Shown here: piece after piece, positions 38,315-38,761 of the stretch
How positions within the stretch are numbered: position 1 is the first letter of the stretch
Layout of the letters: every line of letters starts with the position of its first letter
Source: Candidatus Aminicenantes bacterium
GTDB taxonomy: Bacteria; Acidobacteriota; Aminicenantia; Aminicenantales; UBA4085
DNA length: 64,000 bases
Assembly (NCBI GenBank): GCA_026393855.1
Contig: JAPKZJ010000065.1
Coordinates: 4,560 to 68,559, forward strand
Direction: 5' to 3'
The notes under the pieces: generated by a model
Seen by the model: the letters and a program-made list of their open reading frames with translations, nothing else
Databases searched by the model: none
Told to the model about the DNA's origin: nothing
Position numbers and translations under genes: made by a program

Positions 38315-38761
38315 ATGGCCAACTTGCGCGGATGCAATCTTCCCGAGGACCTCTATTACTACGTCGAGAAGCACATTTGGGCCAAGCCGATGGACGGCGG
38401 CATCGTGCGGATCGGCATGAATGCCGTGGCCGGAAAGCTTTCCGGCGGCAAGCTGAATGCCGTGACCGTCAAGTCCAAGGCCATCGGCGGAGAGATCGCC
38501 AAGGGCAAGAGCGTGGCCACGGTCGAAAGCTCCAAGTATGTCGGCCCCGTCCCGGCCCCGGTGTCCGGAATTCTGGTCCGGGCCAACGTTCAGTTGGCGG
38601 CCGATCCGAACCTGGTCATCCGCGACCCCTACGGCGAAGGCTGGATCGCCGAGATTCAAGCCAGCCAGTGGGAGGCCGAAAAGGCCGGCCTGTTGACGGG
38701 GTCGGCGGGCCTGGCCGCCTACCTGGCCAAGCTGGAAGCCGACAACATTTCCTGCGGCTGA
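38315..38761 (+). CDS. GcvH-like lipoate-binding protein (LbpA-like)
   Basis: H-protein fold signature PEDLYYYVEKHIWAKP...VRIGMNAVA...GKSVATVESSKYVGPVPAPVSGILV, with the lipoyl-lysine in ESSK. No gcvT or gcvP in the window. Confidence 0.8.
   Translation: MANLRGCNLPEDLYYYVEKHIWAKPMDGGIVRIGMNAVAGKLSGGKLNAVTVKSKAIGGEIAKGKSVATVESSKYVGPVPAPVSGILVRANVQLAADPNLVIRDPYGEGWIAEIQASQWEAEKAGLLTGSAGLAAYLAKLEADNISCG

Follow-up and report, generated by a model that had tools for sequence, protein, structure and literature searches.

A stretch of 64,000 nucleotides from contig JAPKZJ010000065.1 of Candidatus Aminicenantes bacterium (assembly GCA_026393855.1), hereafter the window, carries at 38315-38761 a gene that is predicted to encode a lipoate-binding protein of the LbpA type and not the H protein of the glycine cleavage system (GcvH). 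Until now, reports of LbpA have been confined to the sulfur-oxidising sHdr complex; here an LbpA subfamily is joined to an Isp-type [NiFe] hydrogenase. Judging from phylogeny and gene order, this is a distinct LbpA subfamily, always encoded directly upstream of hynS, the small-subunit gene of a membrane [NiFe] hydrogenase of the Isp type (group 1e-like). The explanation of the whole that we favour, with a probability of about 0.6, is that the protein is a hydrogenase-linked LbpA served by a ligase of its own operon, and that the system would act as an oxidoreductase between H2 and protein-bound sulfur or disulfide. The original prediction, made from the letters of this DNA alone, had described a lipoyl protein and its probable ligase bracketing a hydrogenase. 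This bracketing is real and can be refined, as it represents a conserved module that recurs across phyla in 30 loci (five or more named phyla besides that of the window), with nothing to suggest that it is specific to this genome.

The conservation of the module was surveyed in 80 loci, with one genome per species, on which ten proteins of the window were mapped by tblastn. All the GcvH-like proteins with at least 59% identity shared one gene cluster, with hynS starting 24-297 nt after them, at the 30 hydrogenase loci (of which exact look-ups contributed three). The recurrent gene order was tusA-dsrE-dsrE-lbpA-hynS-isp1-isp2-hynL-hynD, with or without a ligase gene at the end, and tusA and dsrE2 were found in 27 of the 30 loci. 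Most of the records carrying the cluster were labelled Chloroflexota, and the others Calditrichia, Ignavibacteriaceae, Melioribacteraceae, ‘Bacteroidetes’, Acidobacteriota and Actinomycetota. The carriers include the isolate Oscillochloris sp. ZM17-4 (locus L020) and relatives of Brevefilum fermentans. At the level of the protein database, at least 120 clusters (90% identity level) showed at least 69% identity to the window protein. Within its own phylum the protein was present in only 3 of 401 sampled genomes. This patchy distribution fits a horizontal spread of the block.

In a maximum likelihood tree of 109 sequences of the GcvH/LbpA family (IQ-TREE quick analysis, SH-aLRT support), the 31 hydrogenase-linked proteins formed one clade (support 100, branch length 0.73) that was nested among the LbpAs of sHdr systems. 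GcvHs with gcvT/gcvP neighbours, including a copy encoded on another contig of the same genome (C27), fell outside a branch with a support of 98. Such a phylogeny had been proposed with the original prediction, and it places the window protein within the sHdr-LbpA radiation and not with canonical GcvH. The clade is also marked by a private insertion of three residues in the loop before the lipoyl hairpin, VA(G/A)KL(S/A)GG(K/N)L, which was present in 31/31 clade members and in 0/78 of the other sequences. The next-nearest proteins (49-53% identity) come from Etf-type sHdr clusters with two lbpA genes in tandem, and are encoded by the first of the pair. Pfam analysis confirmed such a tandem-LbpA, Etf-type sHdr cluster in Alicyclobacillus tolerans.

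LbpA is defined by a lipoyl lysine and by two conserved cysteines near the termini that are missing in GcvH, and its C-terminal cysteine is frequently adjoined by glycine (Cao et al. 2018, PMC6067878). At exactly the coordinates first proposed (38315-38761), the window has an ORF for 148 amino acids with the lipoyl-lysine context VESSKY and the C-terminal end NISCG (MANLRGCNLPEDLYYY...VESSKYVGP...EADNISCG). The lysine of the ESSK motif is K74, and the cysteines are C7 and C147, the latter followed by G148. K74, C7 and C147 did not vary among 18 aligned close homologues; across the clade, K74 was kept in 31/31 members and C7 and C147 in 30/31. Both cysteines were found in most LbpAs of sHdr context and in none of the 12 GcvHs with gcvT/gcvP neighbours. 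The C-terminal cysteine that had been singled out at the start is therefore one half of the published two-cysteine signature; its conserved N-terminal partner, C7, had been overlooked, as had the tusA gene (37128-37367) that heads the operon.

The charge and fold of the protein were also compared with those of GcvH. GcvH proteins have a pI below about 4.5, while LbpAs have a higher pI and a basic surface facing the ligase (Kumpel et al. 2026). We computed the pI alone, and obtained 7.71 for the window protein versus 4.81 for the GcvH of the same genome, with medians of 5.43 for the hydrogenase-linked clade and 4.09 for GcvH. The AF2 model of the protein (pLDDT 78.9) shows a GcvH fold, with TM scores of 0.71-0.74 to the H proteins of T. 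thermophilus and E. coli, and DSSP assigned short strand-type residues (E) at both termini of the model. No chain described as LbpA was among the matches of the solved-structure searches.

The protein thus resembles LbpA1 and LbpA2 of sHdr systems in its GcvH fold, lipoyl lysine, two near-terminal cysteines and pI above that of GcvH (Cao et al. 2018, PMC6067878). C7 and C145 of Thioalkalivibrio LbpA2 correspond to C7 and C147 of the window protein. In both systems, TusA, DsrE proteins and a dedicated LplA-like ligase co-occur with LbpA. Unlike the sHdr LbpAs, the window lbpA adjoins an Isp-type hydrogenase and lacks sHdr genes around it, its product carries the clade-private insertion, and its genome is without LipS1/LipS2.

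The genome (3.68 Mb in 144 contigs, 95% complete) encodes three GCV_H proteins, located in the window and on contigs C27 and C69. Against the GcvH models NF002270 and TIGR00527, the window protein scored 92.9 bits (cut-off 117) and 65.5 bits (cut-off 115.85), whereas the C27 copy scored 166 and 157 bits, above both cut-offs. The C27 copy is the second gcvH whose presence in the genome had been suggested as a check: it lies in a canonical gcvT-gcvH-gcvPA-gcvPB operon, which is the only such set of the genome. As had been stated, neither gcvT nor gcvP occurs in the window; the annotated genes of its 28.4-51.2 kb part likewise include no lpd, with no search aimed at lpd. Relatives of the window protein are labelled ‘glycine cleavage system H protein’ in public sources.

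The third GcvH-like gene, on C69, encodes 172 amino acids (GCV_H, 89 bits) and belongs to an unrelated radical-SAM cluster (C69:12946-17130; L005:7947-12131). It is located between a radical-SAM/SPASM gene and a group of two DGC-domain genes, an OsmC-like gene and a DUF169 gene, with a 611-aa methyltransferase upstream. In the tree its product has a very long branch, outside GcvH and outside LbpA.

The window lbpA is part of a block of ten co-directional genes on the + strand (37128-45249), assigned with Pfam and NCBIfam, in which tusA is the first gene and the ligase gene the last. The features of the block and of its upstream region are as follows.

36917..36946, +: candidate sigma-70-like promoter upstream of tusA, a weak site from a consensus scan (9/12 matches)
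37128..37367, +: tusA, sulfur carrier of 79 aa with a CPMP motif (Pfam TusA, 87.6 bits; start re-read from the sequence)
37394..37870, +: DsrE2/DsrE3-like sulfur transferase of 158 aa (Pfam DrsE_2, 171 bits)
37932..38300, +: second DsrE-family sulfur transferase of 122 aa, DsrE3-like in size (Pfam DsrE, 66 bits)
38315..38761, +: lbpA-type lipoate-binding protein of the hydrogenase-linked subfamily, 148 aa (Pfam GCV_H, 92 bits)
38787..39905, +: hynS, [NiFe] hydrogenase small subunit (TIGR00391, 412 bits; Tat signal SRRDFVK)
39915..40592, +: isp1, HmcE/TmcC-type membrane anchor, presumed b-type cytochrome (under the cut-offs of NCBIfam TmcC and HmcE, with 111 and 90 bits)
40589..41863, +: isp2, cytoplasmic HdrD/DsrK/HmcF-like Fe-S protein with a CCG domain (Pfam CCG and Fer4 families)
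41899..43641, +: hynL, [NiFe] hydrogenase large subunit (Pfam NiFeSe_Hases, 738 bits)
43681..44160, +: hynD, hydrogenase maturation endopeptidase (Pfam HycI, 88 bits; TIGR00072, 129 bits, above cut-off)
44179..45249, +: sLpl(AB)-like lipoate:protein ligase of 356 aa (Pfam LplA-B_cat, PF21948, 130 bits, residues 29-210)

The spacing that had been reported for this block proved correct: 14 nt separate the dsrE stop (38300) from lbpA, 25 nt separate lbpA from the hynS start (38787), and the ligase ORF, the last of the operon, begins 18 nt past the hynD stop (44160). The promoter scan returned 3 sites, compared with 1.6 expected by chance. The putative active-site cysteines of the three sulfur carriers, namely C17 of TusA, C119 of the DsrE2/DsrE3-like protein, and C20 and C83 of the second DsrE protein, were each kept in 28/28 hydrogenase-linked homologues. 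The DsrE2/DsrE3-like protein scored 180 bits against the NCBIfam DsrE2 model, under its cut-off of 210.

The genes upstream of the operon (a GH3 hydrolase, a permease and tsaE) are all unrelated to it. Directly downstream lies a gene for a large secreted protein of 1218 aa with PKD and PLAT domains (45285-48941), with a promoter-like site at 45266-45293, followed by a second large gene (48992-51154) encoding 720 aa with no Pfam match. Further away, a stretch of lower G+C content (0.568) holds a gene on the opposite strand (28425-29708, -) for a 427-aa protein with aspartyl-protease (retropepsin-like) and PDZ domains.

The ligase that closes the operon most likely attaches lipoate or octanoate to Lys74. 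It is indeed the only lipoate-attachment gene of the window, and the genome holds just two genes of the LplA/B family, this one and C52:3347-4171. Its C-terminal part is weakly LplB-like (PF10437, 21 bits; NF053749, 37 bits; both below cut-off). The protein shares 43% identity (E 7e-67) with the A. tolerans ligase that adjoins the lbpA pair of that species, whereas its best match to solved housekeeping ligases reached only about E 1e-24. The original prediction had named clustering with housekeeping LplA as a possible outcome for this ligase. In a tree of 49 sequences, it grouped instead with ligases of sHdr clusters: eleven hydrogenase-cluster ligases formed its clade, the sister of which was the ligase of a Gemmatimonadota Etf-type sHdr cluster (support 98). 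The LplA-family gene of C52, the sole comparison of the verified housekeeping LplA kind, was set far apart from it (branch length 3.43, support 100).

The ligases of the hydrogenase clusters as a whole fell into three separate clades within the sHdr-ligase radiation, suggesting that a ligase was recruited repeatedly by these clusters. Of the 26 loci long enough to show what comes after hynD, 22 have a ligase gene there. The genomes of the four ligase-free loci hold sLpl-type ligases elsewhere, beside further lbpA genes or LipS-type radical-SAM genes. A monophyletic LbpA combined with repeated, independent recruitment of a ligase argues that the carrier needs a dedicated ligase.

The closest known counterpart of this enzyme is sLpl(AB) of the sLpl(AB)-LipS1/LipS2 pathway (Tanabe et al. 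2023, PMC10332631). Both have an LplA catalytic part and an LplB-like C-terminal part, and the window ligase is likewise encoded with its LbpA target and groups with the ligases of sHdr clusters. The systems differ in that this genome has LipA and no LipS1/LipS2, and in that other hydrogenase clusters have a ligase from a different clade or one that is fused to a second GcvH-like domain. In some other carriers of the cluster, LipS adjoins the ligase.

Fused ligases, with a second and cysteine-free GcvH-like domain, were observed at three loci (L009:15421-17178, encoding 585 aa; L016, about 10137-11900; L032, about 15243-16800). They constitute one of the three ligase clades and cluster with those ligases of sHdr clusters that have LipS next to them. 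L009 and L032 also have a radical-SAM gene downstream of the fused ligase; that of L032 is LipS-like (39% identity).

The hydrogenase of the operon is assigned to the Isp type (group 1e-like) by its hynS-isp1-isp2-hynL gene order and by the nearest solved relative of HynL. This relative is the large subunit of the Allochromatium vinosum enzyme (3MYR_B), with 795 bits versus 650-700 bits for enzymes of the Hyd-1 type (hydrogenase-1). The motifs RACGVC and DPCMACAIH are intact in HynL, and the sequence extends past the His of the latter; by analogy with other [NiFe] large subunits, this C-terminal extension would be the piece cut off by the HynD endopeptidase. A hypD gene is present elsewhere in the genome. 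Isp1 has hydrophobic segments, and six of its His residues recur in 28 or more of 30 homologues. In Isp2 there are two CX2CX2CX3C motifs of the ferredoxin type and the residues C316...C352-C353-G...C392xxC395, kept in 28-29 of 29 homologues. Its CCG domain matches the HdrB structures 9SFI and 5ODC, and it scored 219 bits against the DsrK model.

The operon thus shares with the Isp-type hydrogenases (HydDB group 1e) of Allochromatium vinosum and Thiocapsa (PDB 3MYR) the HynS-Isp1-Isp2-HynL order, a HynS with a Tat signal, an Isp1 anchor of the HmcE/TmcC type and an HdrD-like Isp2. It differs from them by the addition of tusA, two dsrE genes, lbpA and the ligase gene, none of which appears in the hyn clusters described in the Thiocapsa and Acidithiobacillus papers that we consulted. 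An association of Isp-type hydrogenases with sulfur metabolism has long been suspected (PMC10892978; PMC7735108). At one related locus, an ORF of 106 aa with no Pfam match is located between isp2 and hynL (L011:12608-12928), and it also occurs in a second contig; the window does not have this ORF, and its isp2 and hynL are 35 nt apart.

Two loci of Chloroflexi metagenome-assembled genomes (L050:5663-9441 and L051) hold tusA-dsrE2-dsrE, an Isp1-like gene, an Isp2 homologue (33% identity, E 1e-86) and lbpA, but no hydrogenase genes. These loci link LbpA and the sulfur carriers to the Isp1/Isp2 pair and not to HynSL. A 229-aa ORF of L050, between dsrE and the Isp2-like gene, was considered as Isp1 and rejected as a wrong frame, as it has no hydrophobic segments and no Isp1 match; an overlapping frame of 253 aa aligns weakly with Isp1 (24% identity, E 2e-4).

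A further system to be compared is DsrMK(JOP)-DsrC, which similarly pairs a membrane cytochrome b with a cytoplasmic CCG protein. It acts on a small carrier with two near-C-terminal cysteines, and it serves us as a working analogy for Isp2 and LbpA. The carrier of the window is different, having a GcvH fold and a lipoyl arm in place of the DsrC fold. The genome moreover lacks DsrA and has a separate dsrC and dsrMK-like set on contig C144. That set (C144:22900-27616) comprises genes for a DsrC that keeps the two C-terminal cysteines (...CKLAGLPKPDGCV), for a cysteine desulfurase and a DsrM-like membrane protein, and for a DsrK-like paralogue of Isp2 (36% identity). In a related genome, a similar dsrC/dsrMK-like set (L011:505-4358) is located directly upstream of the hydrogenase-LbpA cluster.

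We propose that the operon would function in the following way. HynSL would be exported by the Tat system and oxidise H2 in the periplasm, and the electrons would cross the membrane through the hemes of Isp1 to the cytoplasmic, HdrD/DsrK-like Isp2. The CCG-bound iron-sulfur site of Isp2 could then reduce the lipoyl disulfide of LbpA, or a lipoyl or cysteinyl persulfide bound to its lipoyl arm or its flanking cysteines. TusA and the two DsrE proteins may deliver sulfane sulfur to the Isp2/LbpA site or remove it from there. The net activity would be that of an H2:protein-bound sulfur/disulfide oxidoreductase, with protons released outside and consumed inside. Genes for sHdrA, sHdrB and sHdrC were found neither beside lbpA nor elsewhere in the genome, and no DsrA was found in the genome. 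Therefore, neither known pathway explains the carriers. In its full form, the proposal is that lipoyl-LbpA loaded via TusA/DsrE is the physiological substrate of Isp2, and that the ten-gene block is a self-contained, horizontally mobile and energy-conserving oxidoreductase; this we put forward tentatively, at odds somewhat below even.

Several points weigh against the proposed H2-to-sulfur function. Gene clustering establishes a functional linkage but does not single out the substrate protein, and lipoylation, the contact between Isp2 and LbpA and the direction of electron flow are all read from the genes. A homologue of LipS1/LipS2, which accompany sLpl(AB) in the published pathway, was not found in this genome. 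Therefore, sulfur insertion would need the canonical LipA, which is present, or lipoate salvage. No LbpA is known to accompany the classical Isp hydrogenases of purple sulfur bacteria; if there is none, LbpA would not be a universal partner of Isp2. Finally, support at the RNA level consists of four short assembled contigs, for which carry-over of DNA is possible. Sequences of the operon are present in metagenomes from freshwater and lakes and, of three metatranscriptome runs compared with the operon, one from a lake yielded these contigs (150-273 nt, 0-1 mismatches), which match dsrE2, the dsrE2-dsrE junction and hynS. They give weak evidence for transcription of the operon in situ. Other metatranscriptome matches were discarded as spurious overlaps of 18-25 nt.

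Two other functions of the operon appear unlikely, to a similar degree. First, LbpA might be purely an electron relay, in which electrons pass from Isp2 through the lipoyl group and dihydrolipoamide dehydrogenase to NAD+, with TusA and DsrE having sensing or ancillary roles. Such a route from H2 to NADH has a precedent in the sHdr model, in which dihydrolipoyl-LbpA is reoxidised by dihydrolipoyl dehydrogenase (Cao et al. 2018, PMC6067878). The glycine cleavage system of this genome needs a dihydrolipoamide dehydrogenase, and by textbook potentials lipoamide stands between H2 and NAD+. However, no lpd-type gene was evident in the 30 clusters as far as our searches could show, and the retention of TusA and two DsrE proteins with invariant active-site cysteines in 27/30 loci is hard to explain without a sulfur substrate.

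Second, the operon might work in the oxidative direction as a minimal analogue of sHdr. In this case, sulfane sulfur from TusA/DsrE would be oxidised at the Isp2/LbpA site, and electrons would go to H2 or, through Isp1, to quinone. All the known LbpA systems are oxidative, and group 1e enzymes are bidirectional according to HydDB (cited in PMC7735108); the variant with Isp1/Isp2 and LbpA but no hydrogenase would also suit a quinone-linked oxidase. However, Isp2 has a single CCG domain, and no HdrA-like gene was found by tblastn anywhere in the 95%-complete genome, so that the multi-site chemistry by which sHdr is proposed to form sulfite would be missing. In addition, H2 evolution from sulfane sulfur is expected to be thermodynamically unfavourable unless H2 is very low, and Isp2 has its closest relatives in DsrK and HdrD, both of which are reductases.

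A role of the carriers in serving the hydrogenase itself, by supplying or repairing the sulfur of its Fe-S clusters or by protecting it from reactive sulfur species, seems improbable to us. The operon does include the gene for a maturation protease, and the TusA and DsrE families also function in biosynthetic sulfur transfer. Against this, L050 and L051 keep the same carriers and the Isp1/Isp2 homologues with no hydrogenase to be served, and the nearest LbpA relatives are catalytic partners of sHdr. As far as we know, the other groups of [NiFe] hydrogenases need no lipoyl protein. As for a spare glycine-cleavage H protein or GcvH-type lipoyl relay placed beside the hydrogenase by chance, the GcvH fold, the Pfam GCV_H match and the names given to its homologues would suit it, but we rejected it as very improbable given the scores below both GcvH cut-offs, the canonical operon elsewhere in the genome, the separate clade and the synteny in 30 loci of several phyla.

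The preferred reading, in which the hydrogenase-linked LbpA takes part in H2-dependent reduction of protein-bound sulfur or disulfide, bears on a long-standing gap. To our knowledge, the cytoplasmic partner of Isp2 has never been identified since Isp-type hydrogenases were first described. Our full-text searches found no paper that connects a hydrogenase with LbpA, with lipoate proteins of the sHdr type or with lipoate ligases. Three types of sHdr cluster are described in the key LbpA papers, none of which has a hydrogenase, and sHdr genes have been called ‘inevitably associated’ with lbpA (PMC6067878). A Thiocapsa genome paper of 2024 still regards the connection of the Isp hydrogenase to sulfur metabolism as speculative and in need of confirmation (PMC10892978).

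A monophyletic LbpA subfamily tied to the hydrogenase in several phyla is a concrete and purifiable candidate substrate for Isp2, and it extends protein-bound lipoate to hydrogen metabolism. The 148-aa protein with its three-residue insertion could also be used as a marker to flag H2-linked sulfur cycling in metagenomes. If lipoyl-LbpA is indeed the substrate of Isp2, this hydrogenase would represent a third class of LbpA-dependent enzymes beside the two sHdr types. Uncultured anaerobes, among them Anaerolineae, Ignavibacteria, Calditrichia and Acidobacteriota, would then use protein-bound lipoate reductively, in respiration.

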